A stretch of DNA of 64,000 bases from Candidatus Omnitrophota bacterium (GTDB taxonomy: Bacteria > Omnitrophota > Gorgyraeia > 2-01-FULL-45-10), in NCBI GenBank assembly GCA_903843285.1, contig CAIMPC010000007.1, positions 92,730-156,729 on the forward strand, in the 5' to 3' direction. The position numbers were made by a program, and so were the translations under genes. Below, piece after piece: positions 1,070-59,609 of this stretch (positions within the stretch are counted from its first letter, which is position 1; every line of letters starts with the position of its first letter). A model generated the notes under the pieces. The model was not told the DNA's origin and made no database searches. It worked only from the letters and a program-made list of their open reading frames with translations.

Positions 1070-1972
1070 ATGAATAAACTAAGCTGCATAAAAGCACGGC
1101 CGGATCAAAATTACGTAGCCTATTTTCTTACGTTGGCATGTAATCTTCGCTGCCCGTATTGCATTAACATGCATAACGGTGGACCGAAAAAGGCATCTAT
1201 TGAGAGACGCCACCTGACTGCCGATGAATGGATAAAGGCCGCCGACCGCCTCGTGCTGAGGGACGACCTGCCATTGACTCTTCAGGGAGGCGAGCCGACA
1301 TTACATAAAGGCTTTTACGACATAGTGAATAAGGTCAAAGAGTCTATAAAGATGGACCTATTGACCAACATGCATTTCGATACTGACGAATTTATAAAAA
1401 ATGTGCCTGTCTGGCGGTTTACCCGGAAGGCGCCGTATGCGTCCATTAGAGCTTCCTATCATCCGGGACAGAATAACATAGATGAGCTTATTAAGAAGAC
1501 TTTTAAGCTGCAGGATGCGGGTTTCAGGGTAGGTATCTATTCGTTATCGAGCCCCGATGTAAAGACTAAGGAACATGTAGAGGCGGTGCGGGCCAGATGC
1601 CTGAAAGATGGTATAGATTTCAGATATAAAGAGTTCCTAGGAGAGTGGGATGGAAAACTGCACGGAATGTTCAAATATGATGGTTCTGTCATGGGGAGAG
1701 ATACGAGATGGTGCGAATGCAGGACCACAGAGCTCATCGTAGATCCAGCCGGCCATGTCTATAAATGCCACGCCGACCTATACAAGGGCAGGTCTCCTAT
1801 AGAGCATATATTGGATGAAGATTTTAACGGCGAATCCCTCCGGGAGTTCAGGCCTTGCGATAAATATGGTGACTGCAATCCTTGCGATGTTAAAGTTAAA
1901 ACCAACAGGTTTCAGATATTCGGGCACACAAGCGTCGAGATAAGAAATATTAAGAGGCATGATGGCGGATAA
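1070..1972 (+). CDS. radical SAM protein with C-terminal Cys-rich (SPASM/twitch-like) region
   Basis: CNLRCPYC (CxxxCxxC) motif near the N-terminus. C-terminal WCEC...C...CDKYGDCNPC cysteine cluster. Confidence 0.7.
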   Translation: MNKLSCIKARPDQNYVAYFLTLACNLRCPYCINMHNGGPKKASIERRHLTADEWIKAADRLVLRDDLPLTLQGGEPTLHKGFYDIVNKVKESIKMDLLTNMHFDTDEFIKNVPVWRFTRKAPYASIRASYHPGQNNIDELIKKTFKLQDAGFRVGIYSLSSPDVKTKEHVEAVRARCLKDGIDFRYKEFLGEWDGKLHGMFKYDGSVMGRDTRWCECRTTELIVDPAGHVYKCHADLYKGRSPIEHILDEDFNGESLREFRPCDKYGDCNPCDVKVKTNRFQIFGHTSVEIRNIKRHDGG

Positions 1973-3038
1973 ATATCTTATAGACGGCCATAAATTATTC
2001 TGGCACATGGACAAAGTGTCCGACTGGCAGAAAGGAAAGCCGGTAACACCGATCTATATAGAGATCAGTCCGGTGTCACTATGTAATCACAGATGCATAT
2101 TTTGCGGCATAGATTTTGTGCGCGATGTTGATTTTAAGCTCGATACGGAGCTTCTCCGTAAGAGGCTTAAAGAGATGGGCAAGCTCGGCGTTAAAAGTGT
2201 GATGTTTGCCGGAGAAGGCGAGCCCTTACTGCATAATGGCCTGGAGACATTCGTGAAGACGGCGAAAAATGCCGGCATGGATGTGTCGATCACTACGAAC
2301 GGCAGCCTCGGCAATTATAATATATGGAAGAAGCTCCTGCCGTATCTCACCTGGATAAGATTCAGTGTTGATGCCGGGAACGCCGAAAGTTATGCCAGAG
2401 TGCATAAGGTTGCCGGGAGCGTCTTCCACAAAACGATAAAGAGCATAGAGGATGCGGTAAAAGTTAAGAAGGACCTTCGCTTAGATGTGACGATAGGCGT
2501 CCAATTCCTGATGATAGAAGAGAATTTAAAGAGCCTGGAGGATGCCCTTAAACTATTTTCCAAGTCCAGAGTGGACTATTTCAGCTTAAAGCCTTATTCT
2601 CTCCATCCGCAAATGGTGCATAAGCGTGATATATTCTACACAAAACGGATAGCCGGAAATGTCCGTGCGCTTGTAGATAAATTCAGGAAGACATCAAAGA
2701 TGGAAATAATATTCAGGGATGATGCAATGGAAAAGTACGTTGGTAAAAAGAAGCAGTTCGGGCATTGCCGGGCCCTGCCTTTCTGGGGGTATGTATCATC
2801 AAGGGGAGATTTTTATACCTGTAGTGTGTTTATCGGAGATAAGAGATTCAGAGCCGGTAACGTCCACAAGGATAGTATGGCTAAAATATTATTAGGTAAA
2901 GATCGTGCGCGATCTATAGCCTATGCGGCCAGGAAATTGTCTGTCGGTAAAGAATGCAGGGTTAATTGCAGGATGGCGAGAGTAAACGAATTTTTGGAGT
3001 TTTTAGAGAATAGGCCTGAACATATCAATTTCGTATAG
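1959..3038 (+). CDS. radical SAM protein
   Basis: CNHRCIFC (CxxxCxxC) motif and glycine-rich FAGEGEPLL SAM-binding motif. Start overlaps the upstream gene by 14 nt. Confidence 0.7.
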   Translation: MMADKYLIDGHKLFWHMDKVSDWQKGKPVTPIYIEISPVSLCNHRCIFCGIDFVRDVDFKLDTELLRKRLKEMGKLGVKSVMFAGEGEPLLHNGLETFVKTAKNAGMDVSITTNGSLGNYNIWKKLLPYLTWIRFSVDAGNAESYARVHKVAGSVFHKTIKSIEDAVKVKKDLRLDVTIGVQFLMIEENLKSLEDALKLFSKSRVDYFSLKPYSLHPQMVHKRDIFYTKRIAGNVRALVDKFRKTSKMEIIFRDDAMEKYVGKKKQFGHCRALPFWGYVSSRGDFYTCSVFIGDKRFRAGNVHKDSMAKILLGKDRARSIAYAARKLSVGKECRVNCRMARVNEFLEFLENRPEHINFV

Positions 3039-3047
3039 GAGTTAATT

Positions 3048-3995
3048 ATGTCCACAAAGATACTTATCGTGAAGCTGGGATATTCGGAGACGCTCGACTC
3101 GGAGATTACCAGGATCCCAAGTCTCGGGGATGTTTTAAGGACCACGCCGATATTGTGGGCCCTAAAGGAAAAATATCCGGATTCTAATGTCACATGGCTT
3201 GTCGATAAACAGGCTGAACCGCTCTTGCGCGGCAATCATCTTATCGACCGTATACTGATCTGGGACGAGTTTGTGCCGTTTCAGCTTATGAAGGAAAAAT
3301 TTGACATACTGATAAACCTTGAAAAGATAGCGGGCGTCTGTGCTCTATCGGATATGATAGACGCGTGGGTGAAGTATGGTTTCAGGTTCGACGGAATTAA
3401 CGGCACATACCATGCCTACGAACGCGGCCTGGATTTTATCGACTATATTGAGAAGAAAAAAGTGGGCAAGTCCAGAGACTGCTGGCAGAAGATCCTGATA
3501 AAGATGATGGGCTCCGAATGGAAAGGCCAGGAATATATAATCGGCCATAAGCCTAAGTCGAAAGAGATCCACGACGTAGGGCTGAACTATACTGTCGGCT
3601 CGAAATGGCCGCACAAAGCGATGCCTGTCGAGAAATGGCGGGAACTGGAAAAGAAGCTTGTCGCAGAGGGGTATAAGGTATCCTGGCAAGAGGGCGTCGA
3701 CGACTTATATGCGTATATGGATTGGTTGAATTCCTGCAGAATAATAGTGTCGAACGACAGCCTCGGCCTTCACATAGCGTTTGCCCTTAAAAAGAAGGTG
3801 ATAGGGTTATTTGGCCCGACCGATTCGAAAGAGATATATTTCTACGGTGACGGCAAGATCATCCGGTCAAATGTGAAATGTAAAAATATGCCGTGCTATA
3901 AACTGGAGTGCGTATCCGGTAAAAAATGCATGGAAAAGATAAACACTGACGTCATAATCGATCGTGTTAACGATTTCGGAAAAGTGAAAAGGTGA
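3048..3995 (+). CDS. glycosyltransferase family 9 (heptosyltransferase-like)
   Basis: N-terminal ILIVKLGYSETLDS...LGDVLRTTPIL and C-terminal SNDSLGLHIAFALKKKVIGLFGPT motifs, typical of ADP-heptose:LPS heptosyltransferases. Confidence 0.7.
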   Translation: MSTKILIVKLGYSETLDSEITRIPSLGDVLRTTPILWALKEKYPDSNVTWLVDKQAEPLLRGNHLIDRILIWDEFVPFQLMKEKFDILINLEKIAGVCALSDMIDAWVKYGFRFDGINGTYHAYERGLDFIDYIEKKKVGKSRDCWQKILIKMMGSEWKGQEYIIGHKPKSKEIHDVGLNYTVGSKWPHKAMPVEKWRELEKKLVAEGYKVSWQEGVDDLYAYMDWLNSCRIIVSNDSLGLHIAFALKKKVIGLFGPTDSKEIYFYGDGKIIRSNVKCKNMPCYKLECVSGKKCMEKINTDVIIDRVNDFGKVKR

Positions 3996-4837
3996 GCGTG
4001 ACAAATACGGTGCTTAATGCAAAAGATATCAGAAAAAAAGCAGACCGGATAAGGGCGGAAGTTATAGATGTCGCGGTACGGAACGGTGCCGGGCACATCG
4101 CGCCTTCTCTGTCCTGCATCGATATACTCGTAGCGCTCTATTATGGCTCGATGTCCTACAGGCCGGGATATCCCGCTTGGGACGGCAGGGACAGGCTTAT
4201 ATTCTCTAAGGCACATGGCTGCTACACACTGTACGCGATATTAGCTGATATAGGTAATATGCCGAAAGAGGAGTGGAAAAAGTTTTATACCTGCGACAGC
4301 ACGCTCTCCGGCTGCGCAGAAAACAGGCCCGAGTATGGTATCGAGGCAAGCTGTGGTTCTCTGGGTCATGGATTACCCATGGCTGTCGGCAATGCGTTAG
4401 CCGCAAAATTACAGAAGAAGAAATATCACACTTTCTGTATTATCGGGGACGGAGAAATGCAGGAAGGCACCACATGGGAAGCTATTCAGTTTGCGGTTAA
4501 GCATGAGTTGAATAATTTAACCATAATAATCGACGAGAACCGTATTCAAGCCATGGATTTTATTACTAATATCATGGATATCGGGGTAAATGATAAGATA
4601 CGTAAATTAAAAGGTTTTGGCCTGTTGCCCATAGTATGCCCGGGGCATGATGTTGTCAAATTGGCAGGTGCCATCAGGCTCGCCCGCAGGCCATCCGGCA
4701 GAGTTCCCAAGGTACTTATAGCACAAACGACAAAAGGTTTCGGCCTGAAATGCATGGAGGATGTGCCTAAGTTCCATTTTCGTATTCCTACAGAAGAAGA
4801 GATATGTTTGGGAAGAAGCTATGGCTGCGGATATTAA
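3992..4837 (+). CDS. transketolase, N-terminal (TPP-binding) subunit
   Basis: GSLGHGLPMAVGNALAAKL and GDGEMQEGTTWEA motifs of the thiamine-diphosphate-binding half of split transketolases. GTG start. Confidence 0.75.
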   Translation: MSVTNTVLNAKDIRKKADRIRAEVIDVAVRNGAGHIAPSLSCIDILVALYYGSMSYRPGYPAWDGRDRLIFSKAHGCYTLYAILADIGNMPKEEWKKFYTCDSTLSGCAENRPEYGIEASCGSLGHGLPMAVGNALAAKLQKKKYHTFCIIGDGEMQEGTTWEAIQFAVKHELNNLTIIIDENRIQAMDFITNIMDIGVNDKIRKLKGFGLLPIVCPGHDVVKLAGAIRLARRPSGRVPKVLIAQTTKGFGLKCMEDVPKFHFRIPTEEEICLGRSYGCGY

Positions 4838-5312
4838 TTTTAGAAAAGATATAGGCGATAGCCTTCTGCCTTATTTTAAAAAAGATAAACGGCTCCATCT
4901 TTTAGTATGCGATATGGGGTTCGGGGTTGTCGATCGGATCAATAAACAGTTCCCGGGAAGAGTCATTAACTGCGGTATCATGGAACAGGGAACGGTCGGG
5001 ATCGCTGCGGGTATGAGCATGAGCGGTTTAGTTCCCATAGTCTATTCGATAGTGAATTTTCTTGTTTACAGGGCGCTGGAGCAGATGCGGAACGATGTCG
5101 TACTGCAGAAATTAAATGTTAAATTTATCTCTACAGGTGCGGATGATTACTTTAAGTTTCTCGGGCCCTCGCATTGTTGCGCCCAGGATGACATTAAGCT
5201 AATGAAGCTGATCAAGATGAAGGTTTACGATCCTTATACCGATAAGAAGGGTTTTCATAAACTGGTCAAGGAATGGATAGCTGATGATAAAGCAGGTTAC
5301 TTGAGGATCTGA
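4821..5312 (+). CDS. transketolase C-terminal subunit, pyrimidine-binding (Pyr) domain only (about 163 aa)
   Basis: CGIMEQGTVGIAAGMSMSGLVPIV Pyr-domain motif. Start set at ATG 4821 (MAADINF), overlapping the upstream gene by 17 nt. The C-terminal transketolase_C domain appears absent. Confidence 0.65.
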   Translation: MAADINFRKDIGDSLLPYFKKDKRLHLLVCDMGFGVVDRINKQFPGRVINCGIMEQGTVGIAAGMSMSGLVPIVYSIVNFLVYRALEQMRNDVVLQKLNVKFISTGADDYFKFLGPSHCCAQDDIKLMKLIKMKVYDPYTDKKGFHKLVKEWIADDKAGYLRI

Positions 5313-5317: not shown

Positions 5318-6103
5318 ATGGACAAAAAAATATTAGATCTTACCGTAGTGATGCCGGCACTCAACGAAGAACAGAATATTATATCCGCTATCGATTCGAC
5401 TTTAAAGGCCTTCGAAAGTCTGCATATTAATGGCGAGATCATCATTGTCAATGACGGCAGTTCCGATAAGACGGAAGAGTTAGCCTCCGGCATGATGCAA
5501 GGCGAGAACCGCGTCAGGATGGTAAGGCACGAGATCCCAAGGGGAATTGGCGCGTCATTCTGGGACGGTGTAAAAATTTCCGACGGAGACGCTGTTGTGT
5601 TGATACCGGGAGACAACGAGGTCGATTCCGAGGAGGCCTTGCGCTACTTTCCGCTTATGCAGCATGTAGATATCGTGATACCGTTTGTTTATAACAGGGA
5701 GGTCAGAAACCCGTTTCGTAATTTTCTATCAAGCGTATTCATATTCATTATTAACGTAACTTTCCGCGTTAACCTGAATTATACCAACGGTACGGTTATT
5801 TATCGAAAGTCCGTGCTATCTAAATTATCCCATTACAGTAATGGCTTTTTTTATCAGGCGGAGAGCCTTATAAAATTGATCAAAAAAGGATACCTTTTCG
5901 CCGAAGTACCGTATTATTTGCAGAGAAGAAAATTCGGGTCATCAACAGCGGTTAATTACCCATCACTCTATCGCGTCGCCAAGGGCTATTTTAATCTTAT
6001 CAAAGCTATCTATCTATCGGCAGATTACGCTAATGATAAAAGTCAATTTAATGAAGGATCAATATCCTCGAAACGCTATAAAGCATACGAAGATAAACAA
6101 TAA
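5318..6103 (+). CDS. glycosyltransferase family 2 (polyprenyl-phosphate sugar transferase, DPM1-like)
   Basis: LTVVMPALNEEQNI...IIIVNDGSSDKT GT2 signature. Confidence 0.75.
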   Translation: MDKKILDLTVVMPALNEEQNIISAIDSTLKAFESLHINGEIIIVNDGSSDKTEELASGMMQGENRVRMVRHEIPRGIGASFWDGVKISDGDAVVLIPGDNEVDSEEALRYFPLMQHVDIVIPFVYNREVRNPFRNFLSSVFIFIINVTFRVNLNYTNGTVIYRKSVLSKLSHYSNGFFYQAESLIKLIKKGYLFAEVPYYLQRRKFGSSTAVNYPSLYRVAKGYFNLIKAIYLSADYANDKSQFNEGSISSKRYKAYEDKQ

Positions 6104-6118: not shown

Positions 6119-6637
6119 ATGAACGTATTGCTATATAGCATCCTGTTAGTCGTATTCGCATCCGTATTACATCTCGCCATATGGAAGATACGAATACCGA
6201 AAAGACAGACAAACGCATTGTTCGGGATATTTGTATTCACTCTTTCGCTAGGGACCTTCATTCTGTTCAGGTTTTCCGGATCCATAAGCTGGAATATCCT
6301 TCCTGCAGGCAATCTCTTTGAGATCGCGCAGTTTGTCCTGTTCTTTACTTCGATCGCAGTCGGCTACATACTCTCATATCCGGCTGTCGAAGTCGATAGC
6401 CCGACGCTCATAATAATAAAGGCCGTTTCGGATGCAGGTCGTAATGGAATAGAAAAGGACAGGCTGAAGGAGTTAGTGAATAATGACCTGCTGATTATTC
6501 CCCGCGTTAAAGATATGTTATCCGATAAGATGGTATATCTAATCGACGGGAAATATAAGCTGACCGGAAAAGGCCTTATAATGGCCCGGGTCTTTTCGAT
6601 CTACAGGGACTTTATGCGGCTCGGAAAGGGCGGGTGA
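6119..6637 (+). CDS. small membrane protein: about 3 TM helices plus a C-terminal winged-helix-like soluble domain
   Basis: Hydrophobic N-terminal segments. C-terminal ...MVYLIDGKYKLTGKG... is paralogous to the next ORF. Confidence 0.4.
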   Translation: MNVLLYSILLVVFASVLHLAIWKIRIPKRQTNALFGIFVFTLSLGTFILFRFSGSISWNILPAGNLFEIAQFVLFFTSIAVGYILSYPAVEVDSPTLIIIKAVSDAGRNGIEKDRLKELVNNDLLIIPRVKDMLSDKMVYLIDGKYKLTGKGLIMARVFSIYRDFMRLGKGG

Positions 6638-6643
6638 CCTGAA

Positions 6644-7195
6644 GTGAAGAGTGCGGCGATATTGATATTTGTATTAACACCGTTGATCGGGCTAAAGATA
6701 GACGCGCTGGTCCAGATCTTCAGCTGCCGCTCTAATCCCGGGGTTGGATTACTGAGATCTATCTATCTGGGTTTTTTTGCGGGTCTCTGCGGCCTTGCTA
6801 TGATCGATATCGCGTATTTGGTCTTCGCTCCGCAACTATTTAGGGATCTCACTCTTTCCAGTATCTCAAACATGATCATTTACTTTGCGCTCGGCTACGC
6901 CTATTTTCATTTTGTCGGCCTGGGTGAGACCGCGCGCAGGATCAGGATGCTGATAGAGATATATGGTTCTAAGAACAGCCTATCCCTGGAGGAGATATTA
7001 CAGCGCTATAATGCCACCGAGATAGTGAAGAAGAGGGTGGGGCGTCTCGTTGCCAATGGGCAGCTGATATGCAGAGATGGGAGATATTTTATCGGTAAGC
7101 CCGTCGTATTGTTCATTGCGCGCAGCGTTATATTGATCAAATATATATTTCTCGGCAAAGGAAGCGAATTCGATAAGGGACCGATTAATGGCTAA
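6644..7195 (+). CDS. small membrane protein (paralog of 6119-6637): about 3 TM helices plus a C-terminal winged-helix-like domain
   Basis: GTG start. Hydrophobic N-terminus. C-terminal SLSLEEILQRY...GQLICRDGRYFIGKP parallels the preceding ORF. Confidence 0.4.
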   Translation: MKSAAILIFVLTPLIGLKIDALVQIFSCRSNPGVGLLRSIYLGFFAGLCGLAMIDIAYLVFAPQLFRDLTLSSISNMIIYFALGYAYFHFVGLGETARRIRMLIEIYGSKNSLSLEEILQRYNATEIVKKRVGRLVANGQLICRDGRYFIGKPVVLFIARSVILIKYIFLGKGSEFDKGPING

Positions 7196-50882: not shown

Positions 50883-50906
50883 GGTGTTATTTAACGGAGG
50901 TGTATT

Positions 50907-52312: not shown

Positions 52313-53838
52313 GCGATGAAGCAGACAGTCTTATGAGGATATTTGATGCGATAGCTAAAGTGAATAAGGAAGCTTATAGGGACGTGTTCATGATATCCAA
52401 CTCAGTGTTGAATAAAAACCCTTTCAATAATAATTTATTTAAAAGGTATTCACGCAAAGAAGCTATCGGCAAGTATCCGTTTTGCGCTAAGGTATATAAG
52501 CTTTTGCTGTATTATATTAAGAGCACGCTGTATTTTGGAATGTATCTCATCAGGTTTTTTGAGTTCGTTGTATCGGGGTTTAAGTTCGATTTATCAAGCG
52601 GCGGCAAAGAACTCGTGCTTATAGACGTTCCGTTTTTGCTGGAGGATATTGCGAAGTCATCAGCTTTTCGTGATCGGTACCTTCCAGGCCTGGAGGATAT
52701 TCTGAAGAAGAGAGGGAGGCAATACGCCTATCTGCCGCTATTTTACAGCCAGCAGAATCACAAGAGGCCGTTAGAGCTTCTGCGCGCCCTAAGAATATTG
52801 AAGAGATTTAAGATACCGCTAATAACCGAATATCAGATGTTCAGCTTGAGCGATATTTTCAAGCTCATTTTCTTTATATTGACCTACCCGTTTCACGTGA
52901 TAAGGTGTGCAGACAAGATACAGGATGATACAGAAGAAGGAAAGGCCGTAAAATATGAATTGATGGATACTCTTGACCAGGCGACTTTTTATAATTATTC
53001 ACGCCTTCTCTTAGGAAGGCGGATAGCGCGGATGCGTTACGCAGGCATAAAAGTTATAAGCTGGTATGAGAACCGTCCAACCGATAAAAATCTTTACAAA
53101 GGATTAAGGGATGGTTCGCACTCGGCGCATATCAGAATCTACGGCGCACAGCTATTTCTCTATTCAAAAAAAACGCCCTGTTTCGTCCCTCATGAAGATG
53201 AGCTCGATTTTGGGGTTTTGCCGGATAAGATACTGGCTAATGGGCCGTATTATATTCAGAATGGGACACGCCTCAATCACGTTGTAGGGCCTTCGCTCAG
53301 ATACGCAGGCATTTTCGCAATGGATGTAAATCAAACCGACCGTACCAATATCCTGATCTTATTGCCATATTTTATTAAAGACGCGGAGAAAATATTAAAG
53401 ACGCTAGCAAGCGCGGCGATGTCTCGAAGAAAGTTTTTTATTAAAGCGCATCCGGCTACACCGCTTTCAAGGTTTAAGGGTCTTCTGCCTGCGAGTGCGA
53501 TGATAGTGAGAGATGATATATTCAAACTTTTTAGGACGACTAAGATACTTATCGGTGCTGCGAGCGGTACTATGATAGAAGCTGCGAGCGTGGGTATTCC
53601 GGTCATTGCTATTAAAAGCCATGATGGACTGGATATTAATAATCCTATGCCGGAATACGGCCGGGGAATAATATGGGATTATGCGCTTGACGCCGTAAGC
53701 CTGAATGAACAGATAAAAGCATTCGAGGAGAAGCTTGCTACGAGAGCTGTGATAATAAGGGATGTAGCAGCAAAATATAAAGATATGTTCTTTTCCCGGC
53801 CTACGGAAAGTGCGATCGTCGATGCGTTCGAGCTTTAA
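52309..53838 (+). CDS. putative CMP-sugar (nonulosonate/Kdo) glycosyltransferase, sialyltransferase/KpsC-KpsS-like GT-B with HP motif
   Basis: FIKAHPATP (HP motif), then ILIGAASGTMIEAASVGIPVIAIK, resembling the C-terminal half of capsule Kdo transferases and sialyltransferases. Start at ATG 52309 (ATGA overlap with the HAD gene). Confidence 0.4.
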   Translation: MSDEADSLMRIFDAIAKVNKEAYRDVFMISNSVLNKNPFNNNLFKRYSRKEAIGKYPFCAKVYKLLLYYIKSTLYFGMYLIRFFEFVVSGFKFDLSSGGKELVLIDVPFLLEDIAKSSAFRDRYLPGLEDILKKRGRQYAYLPLFYSQQNHKRPLELLRALRILKRFKIPLITEYQMFSLSDIFKLIFFILTYPFHVIRCADKIQDDTEEGKAVKYELMDTLDQATFYNYSRLLLGRRIARMRYAGIKVISWYENRPTDKNLYKGLRDGSHSAHIRIYGAQLFLYSKKTPCFVPHEDELDFGVLPDKILANGPYYIQNGTRLNHVVGPSLRYAGIFAMDVNQTDRTNILILLPYFIKDAEKILKTLASAAMSRRKFFIKAHPATPLSRFKGLLPASAMIVRDDIFKLFRTTKILIGAASGTMIEAASVGIPVIAIKSHDGLDINNPMPEYGRGIIWDYALDAVSLNEQIKAFEEKLATRAVIIRDVAAKYKDMFFSRPTESAIVDAFEL

Positions 53839-53865: not shown

Positions 53866-54801
53866 TTGGAATCGATAAACCCGAAAGATCCGGTTCGCTC
53901 GGAATTTAGCGTAGTCATAACGGTCTATAATAAGGAAAAGTATATAGCCCGCGTGATAGAGTCTGTGCTAAGCCAGACCTTTCAGGACTTTGAAGTGATA
54001 GTGGTGGATGATGGATCTACGGACGGTAGCAGAGACGCCATTCTGTCATTCGATGACAGCCGTATAAAGTACGTGCACCAGGATAATAGCGGCCTTCCCG
54101 CAGCGGCGAGGAATAAAGGCATGGATCTTTCGCGAGGCAGATATATCGCACTTCTTGACGGAGACGATTATTGGCATAAAGATAAGCTGATGAGATGTAA
54201 AGAGGTGCTGGACAAGATGCCGGAGGTCAGCCTGGTGAGCCATAATATAGCTTTTATGTACAAAGGCAAGGCCCTGAGGATAGTTAAGTTCGGGCCGTAC
54301 GTAAAGCGTATGTACGATAAGTTATTATTTGAAGGTAATTGCCTCGGCCCTTCGGCTGTTGTTATACGAAGAGAAGTCTTCTTTGATGACGGCTTCAGGT
54401 TCAATGAGGATAAGTCGCTCTTTGCGCTGGAGGATTATGAGTACTGGATGCAGCTATCGCGCAAACACCGGTTTTATTTCATTCCCGACGTGCTCGGATA
54501 TTACACAGCTACGGACTGCGGAGCATTTTCTAAAGATACCGATGGAAATGCCATGAATTTGCTCCTGCTTCTGGACACTCATTTCGCAAAGCTGGATACG
54601 ACGGGCAAGAATATACGGAAGATATGGATGCGGCGCAGAGCTTCTGCGATGTGCGGGGCCGGCAGGATGTACAATCATCTGCATAAATTTGAGGATAGTA
54701 GAGAGTGGTATTTAAAGGCGCTCAGCGAGTATCCGTTTAGCTTTAAGGCGTTTATCGGGCTCGTGATGTCTGTACTAAGGGTCAGCGTAGTCTATAAATA
54801 G
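53866..54801 (+). CDS. glycosyltransferase family 2
   Basis: FSVVITVYNKEKYI...VIVVDDGSTDGS and ALLDGDDYW (DxD) motifs. TTG start after an AAAGGA RBS. Confidence 0.7.
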   Translation: MESINPKDPVRSEFSVVITVYNKEKYIARVIESVLSQTFQDFEVIVVDDGSTDGSRDAILSFDDSRIKYVHQDNSGLPAAARNKGMDLSRGRYIALLDGDDYWHKDKLMRCKEVLDKMPEVSLVSHNIAFMYKGKALRIVKFGPYVKRMYDKLLFEGNCLGPSAVVIRREVFFDDGFRFNEDKSLFALEDYEYWMQLSRKHRFYFIPDVLGYYTATDCGAFSKDTDGNAMNLLLLLDTHFAKLDTTGKNIRKIWMRRRASAMCGAGRMYNHLHKFEDSREWYLKALSEYPFSFKAFIGLVMSVLRVSVVYK

Positions 54802-54823: not shown

Positions 54824-56320
54824 ATGAAAAAAAATACGATTGCGCTTTTCTATCCTAAGACGGAAAAAGAGAGCGTTAATAAGAACTTACCATTTGCCAT
54901 ACTGAAGCTGGGATCCGAGCTTAAGGGTGAGGGGTATGACCTTGCTATCATAGATGAGAGATTTGAAGAGCAGTATCAACACCGTCTATCTGAAGTTCTA
55001 GATAAAGCAATCTGTTTCGGCGTCAGCGTTATGACCGGATATCAGATACAGAGCGGCCTGTCGGCATCTGAATTTGTCAGGAAGATCAACAAGAATGTGC
55101 CGATAGTGTGGGGCGGCTGGCACCCGTCGATATTACCGCGGGAAACACTGGAAAATGCTAACATCGATATTGTGGTCATGGGGCAGGGGGAGAGGACCCT
55201 ATGCGAATTGGCCGGTACCCTAAAAAAGGGAGGGCCGCTCGAAGGGATCGACGGGCTTTCATACAAGAAGGGCGGAAGCATAGTCATTAATAAACGGCGG
55301 GAACCGCAGGACGTTAATACTCTCCATCCCTTAAGGTTCGATGTCCTCGATATAGAGAGATACATTTTCCGAAGCGCTCTTGGCAATCGATCGATCTTCT
55401 GGAATTCTTCTCAGGGATGCCCTTACGGATGCGGCTTCTGCAGTACGCCAGCTGTGTACCACAGGCGATGGACCGGACTAAAGGCGGAAACCCTTATAGG
55501 CCAGCTCTCGACCCTAGTCGATAAATACAAGATAGACAGCGTTACGTTTGCAGAGGATAATTTTTTCGTAGATATCAAAAGGGTCGAAACGTTATGCGAA
55601 CTCCTGATAATAAATAAGATAAAGCTTAAGTGGGCCTCCGACGTCCGTGTCGATAAGATCATACATTTTTCGGACGATATGATGCGTCTATTAAAAGAGA
55701 GCGGTTGCGTTAAATTATACGTAGGTGCGGAGTCGGGTGACCAGGATGTCCTTACCCTGATAAATAAGATGATAAGAGTGGAAGATACTTATAAGGCCGC
55801 TGAGATGCTGGATAAGTATAAGATCATATCGGAGTTCTTCGTTATAGTCGGGTTCCCGAACGCCCCGAAGAAGGATTTAGCGAAAACGCTCGAGCTTATA
55901 AAAGGCATTAAATCCCGTTATCCTGATCATCAGTTTTCGACATATATTTATACTCCGTATCCCGGGACACCGCTCCTGGGTTTGGCCGTGGAACACGGCC
56001 TTAAGATACCTGACAAATTGGAAGATTGGGTACGATGGAATATACTCTCCATTAATACACCATGGGTAGATGAGAAATATCTCGATACCGTTAATATGTA
56101 TTCCAAGTGTTATTACCCGCTTGCGTTTCCGTCCCCGGCTTTAAAGAAAAAATTTAATGAGAATTTATTAGGGCTGGTGTATCTTATATTGCATAAACTA
56201 TCGCTTTTCAGGGTGAATAATAATTTCTTTATTTTCCCCGTAGAATGGAAGCTCGTTAAAGCGTTTAACGGGATTAGAACCAGATATGGCATATTCAAGG
56301 AGATGGAATCTTTCAGGTAG
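54824..56320 (+). CDS. cobalamin-binding (class B) radical SAM protein
   Basis: B12-domain motif VWGGWHPSILP. SQGCPYGCGFC motif. Close paralog of 12301. Confidence 0.8.
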   Translation: MKKNTIALFYPKTEKESVNKNLPFAILKLGSELKGEGYDLAIIDERFEEQYQHRLSEVLDKAICFGVSVMTGYQIQSGLSASEFVRKINKNVPIVWGGWHPSILPRETLENANIDIVVMGQGERTLCELAGTLKKGGPLEGIDGLSYKKGGSIVINKRREPQDVNTLHPLRFDVLDIERYIFRSALGNRSIFWNSSQGCPYGCGFCSTPAVYHRRWTGLKAETLIGQLSTLVDKYKIDSVTFAEDNFFVDIKRVETLCELLIINKIKLKWASDVRVDKIIHFSDDMMRLLKESGCVKLYVGAESGDQDVLTLINKMIRVEDTYKAAEMLDKYKIISEFFVIVGFPNAPKKDLAKTLELIKGIKSRYPDHQFSTYIYTPYPGTPLLGLAVEHGLKIPDKLEDWVRWNILSINTPWVDEKYLDTVNMYSKCYYPLAFPSPALKKKFNENLLGLVYLILHKLSLFRVNNNFFIFPVEWKLVKAFNGIRTRYGIFKEMESFR

Positions 56321-56356: not shown

Positions 56357-57106
56357 ATGGATAAGAAGCAGGAGATAAAAGATCTTTACGATGGGTATGC
56401 AGAATATAGATATAATGATGCAACAAATATCAAGGATATCCATACAGATATCTCTCCCGTAATGAGGTACTATCGCAGCAGAAAAGTCGAGACTGCGCTC
56501 GGCATGGGAAAGTTTGCCAGCGGAGCTAATCTTCTGGAAGTTGGCTCAAATGCCGGTCAATATACCACCATTTTAGTTGAAAAAGGTTTTGCAATGACCG
56601 GGATCGACCTTTCCGACAAGGCGTTGGTAGTGGCCAGAAGAAACGCCGAGCTTTCGAATCTTAAGAATGTCGAATATTTCACCTCTGATGCCGAAGATAT
56701 GAGTCTGTTTAAGGACAATACCTTTGATGGTGTCGTGTCATTTTCAACATTACGCTACGTCCCCGATTTGAAGAAAGCGCTAGGCGAGATATACAGGGTC
56801 ACTAAGAAAGGCGGAACGGTAGCACTGGATTTCCCTAACAAGCACTGTCCCTGGTTTAACATCCTGAAGAATAAATTCGGAGTGAACAACCATATCTACG
56901 ATAACTTCTATTCAGCAGGGGAGCTGCGCAGATTATTTGCCGCCGTTGGCTTTACTGTCATTGAGACTCGGAATATATTGTATACCCATTACAAATTCAG
57001 CCCAAGATTACTTGCGACATTCAAAGCCATCGATTTCGTCGGTGAGCGCACTCCCGTGCTCAAAGAACTCGCTGCCATTATTTTCTGTAAAGGCGTAAAA
57101 TCTTGA
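56357..57106 (+). CDS. class I SAM-dependent methyltransferase
   Basis: LLEVGSNAGQY motif I. FDGVVSFSTLRYV motif. Confidence 0.65.
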   Translation: MDKKQEIKDLYDGYAEYRYNDATNIKDIHTDISPVMRYYRSRKVETALGMGKFASGANLLEVGSNAGQYTTILVEKGFAMTGIDLSDKALVVARRNAELSNLKNVEYFTSDAEDMSLFKDNTFDGVVSFSTLRYVPDLKKALGEIYRVTKKGGTVALDFPNKHCPWFNILKNKFGVNNHIYDNFYSAGELRRLFAAVGFTVIETRNILYTHYKFSPRLLATFKAIDFVGERTPVLKELAAIIFCKGVKS

Positions 57107-57996
57107 CATTGCCCGTTCGGGTATTGATAACGTTTGATATCCACGCAGCAGCAGGTGCTGTCGCTGACGTGCGGCTCTGGGTCAGAGAAACCCTGTATTT
57201 CCTTGAATCACTTTCTATAAAAGCCACATTCTTTATCCCGGCTGTCTTTGCCGAGCAGATACCCGAAGAGGTGCGGATGATAGTAGGGAGGGGCCATGAG
57301 GTAGGATGCCACGGCATGACCCACGGGCCCGATGAAGAGTATAATTTGCTACCCTATGAGAGACAAAAGGCCTTTCTTAGCGAAGCGAAAAGTAGGATAG
57401 AAGCAGTGACAGGCCAGGAGATTGTATCTTTCAGGGCACCGGCGTTCAAGCTTAATGGTGACACGATAATGGCGCTGGAGAATACGGGTTTTAAGGCGGA
57501 TCTATCGGTCACGTCCCAAAGGCTCGGCATATTGAGCTCAGAGGTTTCGAATTTAGGGTGGCTATATTCACCCAGGAGTCCCTATCATCCGGATCATCGT
57601 AACCCATTTAAAAAAGGAGAGTCAACTCTTTGGGAGATACCGCAGTCCTCCCTTATTCTTCTCTTCTCATCAAACCTTATAATGGCTTTCGGTGGATTCT
57701 TTATTAAATTATTCTTCAAACTTCTTTTGGCTGAATCGCGCCTTAGAAAGAACCCGATCGTTTATATGACGCATCCGGAAGAGATCTATCCTCGCGATAA
57801 GAAATATGCATACAAATTCCAATGGAGGCATTTATTACCCTCTAAGAAAGACGGGTTTATATTGAGATATATATTTCTCCATAATAAGGACGCCAAGAAA
57901 ATATCTCAGCATAATGTCAGTTTAATAAAGTTTATAAAAGCTTCAAAAAACGTGAATTTCGTAACTGCGAAAGAAATGGTAGAAATACTGAAATAA
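57103..57996 (+). CDS. polysaccharide deacetylase (NodB-homology) family protein
   Basis: VLITFDIH...ATFFIPAVFAEQ...HEVGCHGMTHG NodB motifs. Confidence 0.7.
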   Translation: MTLPVRVLITFDIHAAAGAVADVRLWVRETLYFLESLSIKATFFIPAVFAEQIPEEVRMIVGRGHEVGCHGMTHGPDEEYNLLPYERQKAFLSEAKSRIEAVTGQEIVSFRAPAFKLNGDTIMALENTGFKADLSVTSQRLGILSSEVSNLGWLYSPRSPYHPDHRNPFKKGESTLWEIPQSSLILLFSSNLIMAFGGFFIKLFFKLLLAESRLRKNPIVYMTHPEEIYPRDKKYAYKFQWRHLLPSKKDGFILRYIFLHNKDAKKISQHNVSLIKFIKASKNVNFVTAKEMVEILK

Positions 57997-58029: not shown

Positions 58030-58053
58030 GAACACCCAATGCGAACACCCAAT
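58030..58053. repeat. tandem direct repeat, 2 x GAACACCCAAT separated by GC
   Basis: Read directly from the sequence in the 170-bp intergenic gap, about 115 nt upstream of ATG 58167. Confidence 0.6.
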
Positions 58054-58166
58054 ATACGTTGCTTTTCCAATTTGGCTATGTTAAAATCTGTGCAAATAAT
58101 ATATCGAAGATGGTATGCTCATAAACAAGTGTGTATTTTAGTAGCTTAAGGGAATATATTTAAAAT

Positions 58167-59609
58167 ATGAAAATTTTATTCATTCTAAAAGAATCTGTGA
58201 TGAATGAGCGGCTAGGCATAATGTGTTTAAGCGCCTCGCTAAAAGCTCAAGGCTTTAAGACGAGGCTTGCAATATGCGATACTTTAGGTATTAAAAAAAT
58301 CAAGGAATTGATAAACGAATATAAGCCGGAAGTCGTAGGGTATAGCGTAATGACCGGTGAACATATTAAATTGTTAGAGGTCAATAGGATCCTTAAGAAA
58401 GAATTTAAATTTATTTCGGTGTTTGGCGGTCCCCATGCAACTTTTTTTCCGGATTTAATTAATGAAGATGGTGTAGACGCAATTTGCGTAGGTGAGGGTG
58501 ATGTGGCGTTTACGGAATTCTGTAAAAGAGTCTCAGAGGGCAAAGACTTTTGGAGTGCGCCAAATTTTTTAGTTAAACATGGTGGGAAAGTTATTGAGAA
58601 CGAGGTCCTGCCATTGGTTGAAAATTTAGATACCCTGCCGCTTCCTGACAGGGATATCATGTATCGGGCGGATCGCGCTCTATATAATGGGGGCGGCAAG
58701 ATATTTACTTCATCTCGAGGATGTCCTTATCATTGTACATATTGTTTTAACAGCAAGTATAATGATCTGTATAAAAATAAGGGCTCGGTGGTGCGTTATC
58801 GTTCTCCCGAGAACTTAATTGCCGAGATCTGTGCCGTTATAGAGAACTATCCGGTTAATGTAGTTTCGATAGTTGACGATACTTTTATAGCAAAGCCAAA
58901 AGAATGGTTTGTTCGATTTGTAAAACTTTATAAAGAAAAGGTAAAACCGCCGTTCAGTATTAATGTACGGGCTAATCTGGTAAATGAGGAGATCATCTCC
59001 CTGCTGAAAGATGGCGGCCTGACTTCAGCATTGATCGGGATAGAATGCGGCAACCAAGAAATAGCCAACTCCGTCCTGAAGCGCAATCTTACTAACGAAC
59101 AGATTATTAATGCATGCAGTATTATAAAAAAATATAATATAAAACTCATGACTCTGAGTCTCATAGGCCTTCCGGTGCAAGACAGTTATTCGGTTGATCT
59201 GGAAACGCTCGACCTGAATATTAAAATTAAACCTACATTTGCGTTGTCTTCAATCCTCTATCCTTATCCGGGTACGCCTATCGAATCTTACGCGAGAGAT
59301 AATGGCTTATTATCAGAAAAGACACCTATTCTAGAGACGAATAAACGCGCTTCAGTGTTTAAATTTTCTGACACGGAAAAGAAAAAAATTACTAATCTTC
59401 ATAAATTGTTCGGCTTGATCGTGCGTTTACCGTTTCTTCGGAAATACACTGATTTTTTATGCGTCCTGCCATTAACTTTTCTATATGTCATGCTCTTCTA
59501 TTTTTGGTACGGATATAATATGAAGTTTATATTTTACCCTTTCCTTTCCCTTAGAAAAGAATTTTTCCATTATGTGTCTTTGTGGTATAGATTTCTTTGG
59601 AAGACGTAG
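58167..59609 (+). CDS. cobalamin-binding (class B) radical SAM protein
   Basis: B12-domain motif VFGGPHATFFP. SRGCPYHCTYC motif. Close paralog of 7188. Confidence 0.8.
   Translation: MKILFILKESVMNERLGIMCLSASLKAQGFKTRLAICDTLGIKKIKELINEYKPEVVGYSVMTGEHIKLLEVNRILKKEFKFISVFGGPHATFFPDLINEDGVDAICVGEGDVAFTEFCKRVSEGKDFWSAPNFLVKHGGKVIENEVLPLVENLDTLPLPDRDIMYRADRALYNGGGKIFTSSRGCPYHCTYCFNSKYNDLYKNKGSVVRYRSPENLIAEICAVIENYPVNVVSIVDDTFIAKPKEWFVRFVKLYKEKVKPPFSINVRANLVNEEIISLLKDGGLTSALIGIECGNQEIANSVLKRNLTNEQIINACSIIKKYNIKLMTLSLIGLPVQDSYSVDLETLDLNIKIKPTFALSSILYPYPGTPIESYARDNGLLSEKTPILETNKRASVFKFSDTEKKKITNLHKLFGLIVRLPFLRKYTDFLCVLPLTFLYVMLFYFWYGYNMKFIFYPFLSLRKEFFHYVSLWYRFLWKT

Follow-up and report, generated by a model that had tools for sequence, protein, structure and literature searches.

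A radical SAM-rich supercluster that probably directs synthesis of an LPS-type surface glycan in a probable Omnitrophota bacterium

What is made by a glycan locus in which 12 of 58 genes (21%) encode radical SAM enzymes? The window analyzed here (the whole stretch of DNA, 64 kb) carries these genes interleaved with sugar genes in one locus, all of them co-directional on the plus strand and with ~98% of the sequence coding, much as the first-pass annotation had described. A walk along the source contig extended the locus to at least 122 kb and ~113 genes, a lower bound since the 5' end lies beyond the walk, with UDG, PriA, Fmt and GAPDH forming the 3' boundary, and raised the radical SAM count to 21, i.e. 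14 mutually distant class B enzymes with a B12-type domain and seven others. To our knowledge, the surface-glycan pathways studied so far use far fewer, and the count points to sugar chemistry unseen so far in cell-surface glycans. We propose, with a probability of roughly 0.7 for the explanation as a whole, that the window is the central part of a single co-directional surface-glycan supercluster, that its product is a glycan of the LPS O-antigen/outer-core type, and that the radical SAM enzymes tailor its sugars. The features of the window are collected in Table 1, and genes are named below by their first coordinate.

Table 1. Features of the 64-kb window; scores are profile bit scores unless stated otherwise.
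Feature	Coordinates	Strand	Evidence
PF01522 polysaccharide deacetylase-family protein	147..968	+	92 bits; PgaB/PdaB-like in NCBIfam, below cutoffs
Radical SAM, without B12 domain	1070..1972	+	PF04055 43; CxxxCxxC at residue 24
Radical SAM/SPASM	1959..3038	+	PF04055 69.6, PF13186 23.4
GT9 heptosyltransferase-family	3048..3995	+	PF01075 59; LPS heptosyltransferase I/II-like, below cutoffs
Split transketolase-like thiamine-diphosphate enzyme (ORFs 3992-4837 and 4761-5312)	3992..5312	+	Transketolase_N 115, Transket_pyr 61; transketolase/DXS-like in NCBIfam
Small GT2	5318..6103	+	PF00535 74; weak best matches ArnC, PpgS, AglJ, including polyprenyl-phosphate sugar synthases
Two small membrane proteins (6119-6637, 6644-7195), possibly flippase subunits	6119..7195	+	three TM-like segments each (hydropathy); no Pfam or NCBIfam match
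Class B radical SAM 1	7188..8615	+	PF02310 64.9, PF04055 79.2
Class I SAM methyltransferase	8637..9248	+	Methyltransf_25/11/31
GT-C fold glycosyltransferase, small family unannotated in Pfam	9279..11060	+	
FAD-dependent oxidoreductase (DAO family)	11075..12199	+	PF01266 228; L-2-hydroxyglutarate oxidase-like 269 vs cutoff 299
Class B radical SAM 2	12301..13836	+	PF02310 57.7, PF04055 77.8
Pyruvate-dehydrogenase-E1-like alpha and beta (TPP)	13838..15858	+	E1_dh 231; Transket_pyr and Transketolase_C; PDH E1 alpha 330 vs cutoff 394
NAD-dependent epimerase/reductase	15855..16787	+	profile matches
Small GT2	16780..17532	+	AglJ/ArnC/Dol-P-hexose-transferase-like best matches
GHMP kinase (HddA-like), 4,6-dehydratase-like, nucleotidyltransferase (HddC/ManC-like), DegT/RfbH-like PLP enzyme	17569..21603	+	Pfam; every NCBIfam best match below cutoff
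756-aa protein, 9 TM-like segments, soluble C-terminal ~270 residues, low GC; candidate Wzy or GT-C	21615..23885	+	hydropathy; no Pfam, NCBIfam or PDB match; hhalign vs PMT_2 1.3% probability
Winged-helix regulator-like protein	23994..24488	+	MarR_2 weak; CudC-like 68; 54% identical homolog in L008
NeuB-family nonulosonate synthase with SAF	24489..25556	+	PF03102 250; TIGR03569 371 vs cutoff 400
Class B radical SAM 3, between NeuB and NeuC genes	25603..27084	+	PF02310 41.4, PF04055 79.8
NeuC-type hydrolysing UDP-GlcNAc 2-epimerase	27112..28236	+	TIGR03568 417, above cutoff 236
Radical SAM/SPASM	28241..29605	+	PF04055 75.5; NirJ/AhbD/PqqE-like
TylF-type sugar O-methyltransferase	29666..30322	+	PF05711 74
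WbuX N-acetyl sugar amidotransferase (acetamidino formation)	30326..31552	+	TIGR03573 355, above cutoff 203
CMP-nonulosonate synthetase-like cytidylyltransferase	31479..32279	+	PF02348 91; PseF-like 170 vs cutoff 206
Class B radical SAM 4	32272..33693	+	PF02310 59, PF04055 70
WbuZ/WbuY-like HisF and HisH pair	33704..35277	+	His_biosynth 218, GATase 80; WbuZ 275 vs cutoff 300
394-aa protein	35261..36445	+	no Pfam or NCBIfam match
Class I SAM methyltransferase	36476..37339	+	Methyltransf_23 84.5
Class B radical SAM 5, 5' of second NeuB-like gene	37358..38788	+	PF02310 55.3, PF04055 60
Second NeuB-like synthase, without SAF domain	38833..39684	+	PF03102 222
Second cytidylyltransferase	39720..40460	+	PF02348 78
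Class III aminotransferase, VOC/glyoxalase-fold protein, class I methyltransferase (42308-42973)	40463..42973	+	profile matches
Short radical SAM/SPASM	42978..43778	+	SPASM 37.9; PF04055 29.2, just below cutoff 29.5; CNKNCWMC (CxxxCxxC) at residue 18
662-aa soluble protein; by position, a possible glycosyltransferase	43795..45783	+	no Pfam, NCBIfam or PDB match
Fused TMD-NBD ABC exporter	45773..47599	+	ABC_tran and ABC_membrane; PglK 328, MsbA 292, below cutoffs
Class B radical SAM 6	47596..49134	+	PF02310 46.1, PF04055 72.6
HMGL-type aldolase fused to weak MptE-like (DUF115) domain	49119..50882	+	HMGL-like 87; MptE-like 26.2 vs cutoff 34.6; 4-hydroxy-2-oxovalerate aldolase-like
KdsB-like cytidylyltransferase and HAD phosphatase-like (51635-52312)	50904..52312	+	KdsB subfamily 215 vs cutoff 255; HAD_2
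538-aa protein, weakly like surface-carbohydrate/BFO_1060 glycosyltransferase families	52222..53838	+	TIGR04326 29.9, NF046086 20.7; no PDB match
GT2 chain-extending glycosyltransferase (TuaG/EpsE-like)	53866..54801	+	PF00535 120
Class B radical SAM 7	54824..56320	+	PF02310 44.3, PF04055 70
Class I methyltransferase	56357..57106	+	Pfam
PF01522 deacetylase-family protein	57103..57996	+	Pfam
Class B radical SAM 8	58167..59609	+	PF02310 58.1, PF04055 67.9
GDSL-like protein (weak) and MBOAT/DltB-like membrane O-acyltransferase	59884..62141	+	MBOAT 112, DltB-like 167; Lipase_GDSL_2 24, below cutoff
Class I SAM methyltransferase	62244..63062	+	64% identity ortholog in L014
5' part of 622-aa GT1+DUF218 gene	63062..64000	+	first gene of an anchor ending at WecA-like and Wzy_C genes

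All eight class B enzymes that had been proposed for the window match both the B12-binding profile PF02310 (41.4–64.9 bits; Pfam cutoff 32.1) and the Radical_SAM profile PF04055 (60–80 bits; cutoff 29.5), and each has one CxxxCxxC cluster ~180–230 residues from its N-terminus, e.g. CPWHCTFC at residue 182 of 7188 and CMYNCTYC at residue 229 of 25603. The GG(P/W)H(P)(T/S) motif ascribed to all of them was found in its exact form in four (GGPHPT in 7188), with only the GG pair invariant across the eight. None of the radical SAM enzymes reached a curated NCBIfam subfamily cutoff in the profile search, and the best matches of the class B enzymes, at scores far below the cutoffs, include ApyD (for 7188) and BchE and HpnJ, neither of which is a methylase. 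For 54824, an AlphaFold2 model (pLDDT 93.3) searched with Foldseek resembles TsrM, AprD4, the MCR glutamine methylase, OxsB, TokK and CysS; TsrM ranks first, whereas AprD4 has the highest target-normalised TM-score (0.75) and is the best PDB sequence match for both 54824 (E=1e-17) and 32272 (E=5e-16). Among solved structures AprD4 is thus nearest in sequence, and in fold it is as near as the true methylases.

These similarities bear directly on the prediction that the class B enzymes make C-methyl or C-alkyl branched sugars, which we regard as plausible. AprD4 is a sugar diol-dehydratase that binds no cobalamin (PMC12931638), and with such an enzyme as the nearest relative a PF02310 match is no proof that a protein binds cobalamin or methylates its substrate. 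Instead, the majority of the class B enzymes could catalyze diol dehydration/deoxygenation, epimerisation or ring contraction, or form C-C bonds, in some cases perhaps without cobalamin, a reading that we consider somewhat unlikely. The AprD4 and BchE/HpnJ matches speak for it, as do the 13 ordinary methyltransferases already present in the locus and the report that structure cannot separate the non-methylating B12-radical SAM enzymes, with AprD4 and ArsL both lacking cobalamin (PMC12931638). On the other side, C-methyltransferases occur in every characterized group of B12-radical SAM enzymes, the characterized sugar-acting members GenK, GenD1, Fms7 and MoeK5 are all methylases (PMC12931638), and it is TsrM that leads the Foldseek ranking. 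Because the similarities to characterized enzymes are remote (15–19% identity), neither a methylase nor a non-methylase assignment is strongly favored.

The further radical SAM enzymes called at 1070, 1959, 28241 and 42978 are all real. SPASM had been noted for 28241 only, and the canonical CxxCxxxxxCxxxC motif is indeed there (CAGCEYIQICETGC, residues 324-337), in a protein that the Pfam SPASM profile does not score and whose ORF opens at GTG 28181, with the first ATG at 28241; 1959 and 42978 carry SPASM as well, and in the whole locus the total is six of the seven non-class B enzymes. The six SAM methyltransferases listed for the window were likewise borne out, and they belong to the 13 class I enzymes counted over at least 122 kb.

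What the radical SAM enzymes may act on is suggested by the sugar genes around them. The locus has the pathway genes to make two or three different CMP-activated ulosonic acids, together with a WbuX/Y/Z acetamidino module in which the WbuZ/WbuY-like pair is predicted to supply ammonia. The nonulosonate genes reported earlier held up, with NeuC and WbuX above cutoff, two NeuB-like synthases and PseF-like cytidylyltransferases; the octulosonate, heptose and dideoxy-sugar genes were found as KdsB-like, HddA/HddC-like and RfbH-like members plus GT9, the first three below equivalog cutoffs. The KdsB-like gene probably starts at an ATT/ATC at 50904/50907, its conserved N-terminus being encoded 5' of the first ATG (50991). 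An NDP-hexose/heptose module adds a 4,6-dehydratase, an RfbH-like enzyme and the E1 alpha/beta TPP enzyme, which may attach a two-carbon branch. In post hoc tests, a class B enzyme lies at most two genes away from each of the seven nonulosonate-pathway genes (P=0.002) and each of the four GT-C genes (P=0.03); class B genes are no closer than chance to methyltransferase genes (P=0.13) or GT2 genes (P=0.86).

The GT-C enzymes comprise three annotated PMT_2 proteins and ORF 9279, which is newly recognized here and has an acidic WVDDWAW motif after TM1 (D37 D38, encoded at 9387-9392); two GT9 enzymes and at least 20 others make up the glycosyltransferases of the locus. The apparent lack of Wzx, Wzy and a phosphoglycosyl-transferase turned out to be an effect of the window's edges only, as the walk encountered a PF01943 Wzx ~34 kb upstream and a PF00953 WecA-like transferase with a 439-aa PF04932 Wzy_C protein (WaaL/Wzy-type) 4–6 kb downstream. 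The MsbA-like ABC transporter is present, and its best profile matches, PglK, HepA and MsbA, make it a candidate lipid-linked glycan flippase. In the pathway that we envisage, activated sugars would be made in the cytoplasm and built on undecaprenyl phosphate from a WecA-like step; Wzx and/or the ABC exporter would flip the lipid-linked product, GT-C enzymes would decorate it in the periplasm with polyprenyl-phosphate sugars as donors, and the Wzy_C protein would ligate the glycan. Radical SAM enzymes would tailor unactivated carbons of sugars or N-acyl groups, especially on nonulosonates, most likely by C-methylation or alkylation and for some by dehydration, epimerisation or rearrangement, while O- and N-methyl groups would come from the class I methyltransferases.

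The PF04932 family spans both O-antigen ligases and PglL/PilO oligosaccharyltransferases, and the acceptor of this glycan may therefore be lipid A-core or a protein. General protein O-glycosylation (of S-layer, pilin, flagellin or other proteins), with Wzy_C acting as a PglL/PilO-type enzyme and the PglK-like ABC exporter as flippase, would fit the exporter's best NCBIfam match, the weak MptE-like/DUF115 domain of 49119 and the acetamidino-bearing nonulosonates typical of flagellin and S-layer glycans. We judge it distinctly improbable. The MptE-like score lies under the Pfam cutoff, and the search of neighboring DNA that had been suggested for a flagellin, pilin or S-layer target yielded no such gene, nor a clear Maf gene, within ~122 kb; what it did yield, two GT9 heptosyltransferase-family genes and the WecA/Wzy_C pair, points to LPS, and the WecA, Wzy_C, GT9 arrangement shows the conservation known from LPS loci. 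A point against LPS is that the walk (~122 kb) met no genes for Wzz, Lpt or lipid A.

Parts of the supercluster recur elsewhere. The class B enzyme 12301 opens a sugar module conserved in L008, where its ortholog (71% identity) has the same neighbors and the module keeps the 12301-type enzyme, E1 alpha/beta, epimerase, GHMP kinase, NTP-transferase and DegT, with two additional class B enzymes interleaved. A 3' anchor of Omnitrophota glycan loci (GT2, 54824-type class B, deacetylase or acyltransferase, GT1-DUF218, GT4, epimerase, PF00953, Wzy_C) recurs in three other genomes at 36–72% identity. Orthologs of 54824 in L014-L016 are 47–72% identical and in the same context, with the deacetylase gene directly 3' in L015 and two genes 3' in L016, and the pair of a cytidylyltransferase and a 32272-type class B enzyme is found again in L016 (42% identity).

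With the glycan context retained in this way, we consider it highly improbable that the radical SAM proteins serve a peptide (RiPP, proteusin-like) or lipid-modifying pathway and only happen to be encoded within a glycan locus. SPASM radical SAM proteins and class B enzymes such as PoyB/C and ApyD are typical RiPP maturases, lipid-modifying class B enzymes exist (HpnP/R, ladderane), ApyD is the best match of 7188, and peptidase C1/C39-like and transglutaminase-like genes lie upstream. Against this, all scores are far under the family cutoffs, and the radical SAM genes are scattered ungrouped among sugar genes over 122 kb. They frequently overlap these by a few bases (8 nt between 31479 and 32272, 4 nt between the exporter gene 45773 and 47596). 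Protein fusions join B12-rSAM to DUF2334, GT1 to B12-rSAM and a methyltransferase (P0072), and a methyltransferase to rSAM-SPASM (P0131), i.e. they include fusions to GT1 and a deacetylase-like domain.

A chimeric misassembly of glycan genes from several organisms, for which the metagenomic origin and GC dips to 0.38 at 22–24 kb and 58–62 kb might speak, is extremely improbable, as JGI, ENA and two Logan assemblies from different runs are 100% identical over positions 1-23836 and 52244-64000 (the parts compared at the DNA level), contigs of 50–200 kb with these proteins occur in 14–16 index blocks, strand is uniform, cumulative GC skew climbs steadily, and the dips fall on membrane-protein genes identified by hydropathy. 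The anaerobic host that had been suggested is consistent with the Omnitrophota homologs: each of three queries had a MAG protein of this phylum as its top homolog. Judged by such best hits, the host is an uncultured member of the PVC group, most likely of Candidatus Omnitrophota. Hypervariable O-antigen/capsule cassettes have been reported in Omnitrophota (bioRxiv 10.64898/2026.05.20.726742). The closest locus is labelled Planctomycetia.

All eight ORFs that the first-pass annotation had called class B radical SAM enzymes, i.e. radical SAM proteins with a B12-binding-type domain, carry both expected domains in a Pfam scan of every ORF in the window, with scores of 41.4-64.9 bits for PF02310 (B12-binding; cutoff 32.1) and 60-80 bits for PF04055 (Radical_SAM; cutoff 29.5). 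Each has a single copy of the CxxxCxxC [4Fe-4S] motif, which is present, with its three cysteines invariant, in all 14 class B enzymes of the wider locus. The GG(P/W)H(P)(T/S) motif that had been ascribed to all eight is exact in four; in the others it is not, and GG alone is invariant. An AlphaFold2 model of the class B protein starting at 54824 (40 homologs, pLDDT 93.3) matches TsrM, AprD4, the MCR glutamine methylase (QCMT), OxsB, TokK and CysS, and this fit to known structures confirms the class B architecture independently of Pfam. The B12-type domain is not in itself a measure of cofactor use, as AprD4 and ArsL have the domain and do not bind cobalamin (PMC12931638). The four further radical SAMs of the window proved real by Pfam scan and motif check, and the six class I SAM methyltransferases were likewise borne out by the Pfam scan, the one at 29666 being TylF-like.

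When the window class B enzymes were compared with characterised class B subfamilies (BchE, HpnJ/P/R, PhpK, GenK-like, Mmp10/QCMT, TsrM and others), none of the eight reached a curated NCBIfam subfamily cutoff (best scores of 95-155 bits vs cutoffs of 251-750), and their top matches differed, falling on BchE, HpnJ, ApyD and MJ_1487. Pairwise identity among the 14 class B proteins of the locus is at most 36%. With enzymes this distant from one another and below every curated family cutoff, the locus is not a product of recent duplication; the 14 enzymes are old and diverse, and the locus gathers many distinct lineages.

The extent of the locus was established by exact-protein look-ups in both directions along the JGI contig Ga0212088_10000243 (window coordinate = contig coordinate - 22584) and a 189-kb ENA contig from ERZ1426827. 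It spans at least 122 kb and ~113 genes, including 14 class B and 7 other radical SAMs (21 in total) and 13 methyltransferases, and its gene order is summarized in the table. Within the window, ~58 ORFs all lie on the plus strand, ~98% of the sequence is coding, GC content is ~0.45, and the cumulative GC skew climbs steadily. A chimeric misassembly, raised as a possible objection by the first-pass annotation, was rejected: window genes recur on many independently assembled 50-200 kb contigs from JGI, ENA and Logan (exact-protein look-ups), the DNA of independent contigs is 100% identical over the parts compared (window 1-23836 and 52244-64000), and the two GC dips of the window coincide with membrane-protein genes.

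Features of the glycan locus, from upstream to downstream of the window (MT, methyltransferase; rSAM, radical SAM; lengths in residues in brackets)
Feature	Position	Content
Upstream block 1		epimerase, GT1, acetyltransferase, Wzx (PF01943), MT, GT2, PMT_2, MT
Upstream block 2		class B (465), epimerase, DegT, GDSL, MT
Upstream block 3		class B (468), GT2, MT, rSAM-SPASM
Upstream block 4		class B (483), rSAM-SPASM, PMT_2
Upstream block 5		class B (493), GT1, peptidase C1-like, transglutaminase-like, oxidoreductase, acetyltransferase, epimerase, DegT, acetyltransferase, GT2
Peptidase/transglutaminase pair of upstream block 5	L026:9738-11210 (~11.4-12.8 kb upstream of window)	papain-like (Peptidase_C1/C39-like) gene adjoining transglutaminase-core-like gene inside the glycan locus
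Upstream block 6 (nearest window)	fusion at L004:2998-5619 (~7-9.6 kb upstream of window)	class B-DUF2334 fusion (873; B12-binding/radical SAM plus deacetylase-like domain), MT, unknown gene, GNAT
Window class B enzymes	7188, 12301, 25603, 32272, 37358, 47596, 54824, 58167 (starts)	PF02310 + PF04055
Other window radical SAMs	1070	radical SAM core only
	1959, 42978	SPASM domain (Pfam scan)
	28241	canonical SPASM cysteine motif, missed by Pfam
Arn-like block	5318-9279 (starts)	GT2 5318, two small membrane proteins (6119/6644), class B 7188, MT 8637, GT-C 9279
Large membrane protein	21615-23885	756 residues, 9 TM-like segments, soluble TPR-like-looking C-terminal part of ~270 residues; lowest-GC stretch (0.378)
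Winged-helix regulator-like protein	23994-24488	small; CudC-like, weak MarR_2; 54% identical in L008:7341-7850
Overlapping gene pairs	31479/32272, 45773/47596, 47596/49119	overlaps of a few bases
Second NeuB-like synthase	38833-40460	no SAF domain; adjoining cytidylyltransferase fits its family profile over residues 4-128 of 246 only
Aldolase fusion	49119-50882	HMGL-type (4-hydroxy-2-oxovalerate aldolase-like) plus sub-threshold MptE-like/DUF115 segment; adjoins KdsB-like cytidylyltransferase and HAD protein
Start region of KdsB-like gene	50883-50993	conserved N-terminus (KTVGIIPARYESSRFPGKP...) encoded 5' of first ATG (50991)
Longest intergenic gaps	59610-59883; 57997-58166	274 nt; 170 nt
Downstream block 1		GT1-DUF218, GT4, epimerase, WecA-type (PF00953), Wzy_C (PF04932), GT9, MT, rSAM-SPASM, MT
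Downstream block 2	L024:3413-10001 (~9-16 kb downstream of window; GT2 run to PMT_2)	uninterrupted run of seven GT2 genes, class B (461), small ORF (98-115), PMT_2 GT-C, HAD protein, GT28-like protein
3' boundary		UDG, PriA, Fmt, GAPDH (housekeeping)
3' anchor conserved across genomes		GT2, class B, deacetylase or acyltransferase, GT1-DUF218, GT4, epimerase, WecA-like, Wzy_C

The link between radical SAM and glycan genes is seen in other genomes as well as in the locus itself. Orthologs of 54824 (47-72% identity) occupy the same 3' anchor in three other Omnitrophota genomes, the ortholog of class B enzyme 12301 in the related locus L008 (71%) leads the same module of E1 alpha/beta, epimerase, GHMP, nucleotidyltransferase and DegT genes, with two more class B genes interleaved, and the pairing of a cytidylyltransferase with a 32272-type class B enzyme is found again in the related locus L016. 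Other PVC/Omnitrophota glycan loci also hold several class B genes each (three in 20.8 kb of L008, two in L010, two in L016), and the association looks phylum-wide rather than unique to the window contig. Domain fusions join the same functions in one polypeptide: besides the DUF2334 fusion of the locus, a homologous protein (P0072) combines GT1, class B radical SAM and methyltransferase parts, and another (P0131) is a methyltransferase fused to a radical SAM-SPASM protein. Coupling is also seen in gene pairs that share a few bases, as at 31479/32272, 45773/47596 and 47596/49119. In post hoc permutations on the reconstructed gene order, a class B gene lay at most two genes away from each of the seven nonulosonate genes (P=0.002) and from each of the four GT-C genes (P=0.03). 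Adjacency of class B genes to methyltransferases (P=0.13) or GT2 genes (P=0.86) was no better than chance in permutations on the same gene order, and a recurrent 'GT2, class B, methyltransferase, GT-C' cassette was therefore rejected. A reading of the region as a RiPP cluster was set aside as unlikely, the radical SAM genes being scattered among sugar genes over the whole 122 kb.

The sugar pathways encoded in the window include a nonulosonate set, composed of a NeuB-family condensing synthase, a NeuC-type hydrolysing 2-epimerase and a CMP-synthetase. NeuC (417 bits, curated cutoff 236) and WbuX score above their curated cutoffs. The NeuB-like synthase with a SAF domain reaches 371 bits against 400 (250 bits for Pfam NeuB), the second NeuB-like synthase also stays slightly short of its cutoff, two PseF-like cytidylyltransferases lie just under cutoff (one at 170 bits vs 206), and the KdsB-like cytidylyltransferase and a WbuZ/WbuY-like HisF/HisH pair fall slightly under theirs. 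All members of an NDP-sugar module are below cutoff, i.e. an HddA-like GHMP kinase, an HddC/ManC-like nucleotidyltransferase, a 4,6-dehydratase-like enzyme and an RfbH-like PLP enzyme. The labels nonulosonate, octulosonate, heptose and dideoxy-sugar given earlier are reasonable at the family level, but do not stand as exact assignments. The window also encodes a PDH-E1-like alpha/beta pair, a split transketolase-like pair, PF01522 deacetylase-family proteins, an MBOAT protein and a PglK/MsbA-like ABC exporter. The aldolase fusion at 49119, the KdsB-like protein and the HAD protein may together form an unconventional ulosonic-acid pathway.

The first-pass annotation had found no Wzx, Wzy or phosphoglycosyl-transferase, an absence that reflects only where the window was cut, because a Wzx, a Wzy_C protein and a WecA-type transferase are present in the wider locus. 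A WecA-type initiator (346 aa), conserved in the related loci L014-L016, lies ~4 kb downstream of the window, a Wzx flippase (PF01943/PF13440, 496 aa) ~34 kb upstream as read from the gene table, and a Wzy_C protein (439 aa) downstream, in a family that covers ligase, polymerase and protein-OTase roles alike. Two GT9 heptosyltransferase-family genes are also present, and no Wzz, Lpx or Lpt gene was seen in the 122 kb examined. A flagellin glycosylation island was rejected, as the ~122 kb examined contain no flagellin or flagellar gene, and the one Maf/DUF115-type signal is the MptE-like segment fused to the aldolase, at 26.2 bits vs a cutoff of 34.6.

The frame of the locus is a known one, that of an O-antigen-type locus with nonulosonates. 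Like the nonulosonate O-antigen/capsule loci of the Wzx/Wzy and ABC types (e.g. Legionella pneumophila serogroup 1 LPS, Leptospira rfb/NulO, Tannerella forsythia), it forms one co-directional block beside housekeeping genes, and combines a WecA-type initiator, Wzx, Wzy_C, GT9 and many glycosyltransferases with NeuB/NeuC/CMP-synthetase, a WbuX/Y/Z-type acetamidino module, and O-acyl and O-methyl tailoring genes. It differs in being approximately three to five times longer, and in its 21 radical SAMs (14 of B12 type), four GT-C enzymes and two pairs of TPP-dependent enzymes; no description of radical SAM enzymes in those model loci was found in open-access text. A hypervariable O-antigen/capsule cassette of Omnitrophota shares the phylum, O-antigen ligase, heptosyltransferase, AlgI/MBOAT-type O-acyltransferase and many glycosyltransferases with the present locus; it measures ~26 kb, and the word 'radical' is absent from the preprint (bioRxiv 10.64898/2026.05.20.726742). 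In its size and its radical SAM complement the locus departs from that known frame.

In the mechanism we propose, the glycan would be assembled on undecaprenyl phosphate, starting at the WecA-like step, flipped by Wzx and/or the ABC exporter, decorated in the periplasm by GT-C enzymes, and ligated by the Wzy_C protein, most likely to lipid A-core, an acceptor favored because two GT9 genes are present. The radical SAM enzymes would tailor unactivated carbons of the sugars or of sugar N-acyl groups. For the class B enzymes, C-methylation is the default expectation, since C-methyltransferases occur in each characterised B12-radical SAM group and those members known to act on sugars are methylases (PMC12931638). 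Non-methylating members are not recognisable from structure (PMC12931638), and other radical chemistry is also compatible with the present evidence. One candidate model for such chemistry is AprD4, the radical SAM 1,2-diol dehydratase of apramycin biosynthesis. Its substrate is an amino sugar, no other solved structure is nearer in sequence to 54824 and 32272, and it matches the fold of the 54824 model as well as the true methylases do; identity is ~17%, AprD4 is cobalamin-free and partnered by the reductase AprD3, and no AprD3-like partner was specifically identified in the locus. The antibiotic-pathway sugar C-methyltransferases GenK, GenD1/GntE, Fms7 and MoeK5 share with the class B enzymes the N-terminal Rossmann-type B12 domain, the CxxxCxxC radical SAM barrel, a setting among sugar-modifying genes and unactivated sugar carbons as predicted targets. 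They differ in that the sequence relationship is remote (below curated subfamily cutoffs), that the activity of the locus enzymes is putative, and that the setting here is primary cell-surface glycan assembly with 14 divergent paralogs, as opposed to a secondary-metabolite cluster with one or two.

A bolder reading, to which we assign a probability of roughly 40%, is that Omnitrophota, and perhaps other anaerobes, generally diversify their surface glycans by radical SAM chemistry that is for the most part cobalamin-dependent, a route not recognised before. Distinct class B enzymes would add C-methyl/alkyl groups to nonulosonic acids and to sugars linked to nucleotides or polyprenyl phosphate, or would rearrange these by other radical routes. 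If true, the products would form families of surface sugars without known counterparts, and this one locus would yield more than a dozen new families of sugar-modifying enzymes; nonulosonates and deoxy sugars that are C-alkylated, or altered by other radical chemistry, would constitute a new class of surface-glycan components. We found no paper in open-access full text linking class B radical SAMs to O-antigen, capsule, nonulosonate or Omnitrophota glycan loci. A 2026 review on B12-radical SAM enzymes uses none of the words polysaccharide, glycan, sugar or lipopolysaccharide. Every sugar-acting member characterised so far belongs to an antibiotic pathway, and the superfamily's largest groups have yet to be explored (PMC12931638). 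Much of the interest of the locus lies in its many orphan enzymes with informative neighbors, 14 mutually distant class B and 7 other radical SAMs with putative chemistries, whose functions are directly testable because the nearby NeuB/NeuC, cytidylyltransferases, E1-like TPP enzyme and GT-C proteins narrow the candidate substrates. Devoting 122 kb or more to the cell surface is also a heavy commitment for a bacterium whose genome is presumed to be small, and bears on phage evasion and cell-cell contact.

The block from 5318 to 9279 resembles the Arn pathway (ArnC GT2, ArnD PF01522 deformylase, ArnE/F flippase, ArnT GT-C) in its apparent sequence of making a polyprenyl-phosphate sugar, flipping it, and transferring it in the periplasm. 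It differs by the insertion of a class B gene and a methyltransferase gene, by a weak match of its GT2 to ArnC (38 bits vs a cutoff of 529), and by small membrane proteins with no family match; the PF01522 proteins of the locus are encoded outside this block. Weak ArnC/AglJ/PpgS matches are shared by the GT2 proteins 5318 and 16780. By analogy, 7188 may tailor a sugar that is lipid-linked or still a precursor. The last protein of the block, 9279, was assigned to the multi-TM GT-C fold by fold comparison; its first extracytoplasmic loop carries an acidic motif, and it is recognised, as a by-product of this analysis, as belonging to a small GT-C family hitherto unannotated. Searches of 9279 and of the large membrane protein 21615 against the PMT_2 proteins of the locus found nothing with phmmer and gave hhalign probabilities of 0.2% and 1.3%, respectively; the 9279 family profile reached 48% at most, and Pfam scans of 50 family members returned marginal single matches only. 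Protein 21615 has no family or PDB match, and is a candidate for the missing Wzy polymerase or for a further GT-C enzyme. PDB sequence searches with 43795, 52222 and 21615 yielded no match.

The host was assigned provisionally, by homology, to Omnitrophota, as the best homologs of three different locus proteins are proteins of Candidatus Omnitrophota MAGs; the closest related locus is labelled Planctomycetia, also of the PVC group. Some sample names contain 'BUCK21', which may point to a published metagenome set from oxygen-stratified lakes, and this would fit an anaerobe.

With respect to regulation and translation, Rfam at gathering thresholds returned zero RNA-family matches over window 1-64000; although eight B12-type and twelve SAM-cleaving enzymes are encoded there, no riboswitch for cobalamin or SAM was matched, and a promoter/terminator scan of 56-64 kb was uninformative. 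The gene of the winged-helix regulator-like protein lies downstream of the 12301-type sugar module in the window, and two genes upstream of it in L008. In the KdsB-like gene, an in-frame TAA (50892-50894) is followed by GGAGG (50896-50900), ATT (50904) and ATC (50907), with ATG, GTG and TTG all absent between the TAA and the ATG; because GGAGG precedes ATT/ATC, this gene likely has a non-canonical start.
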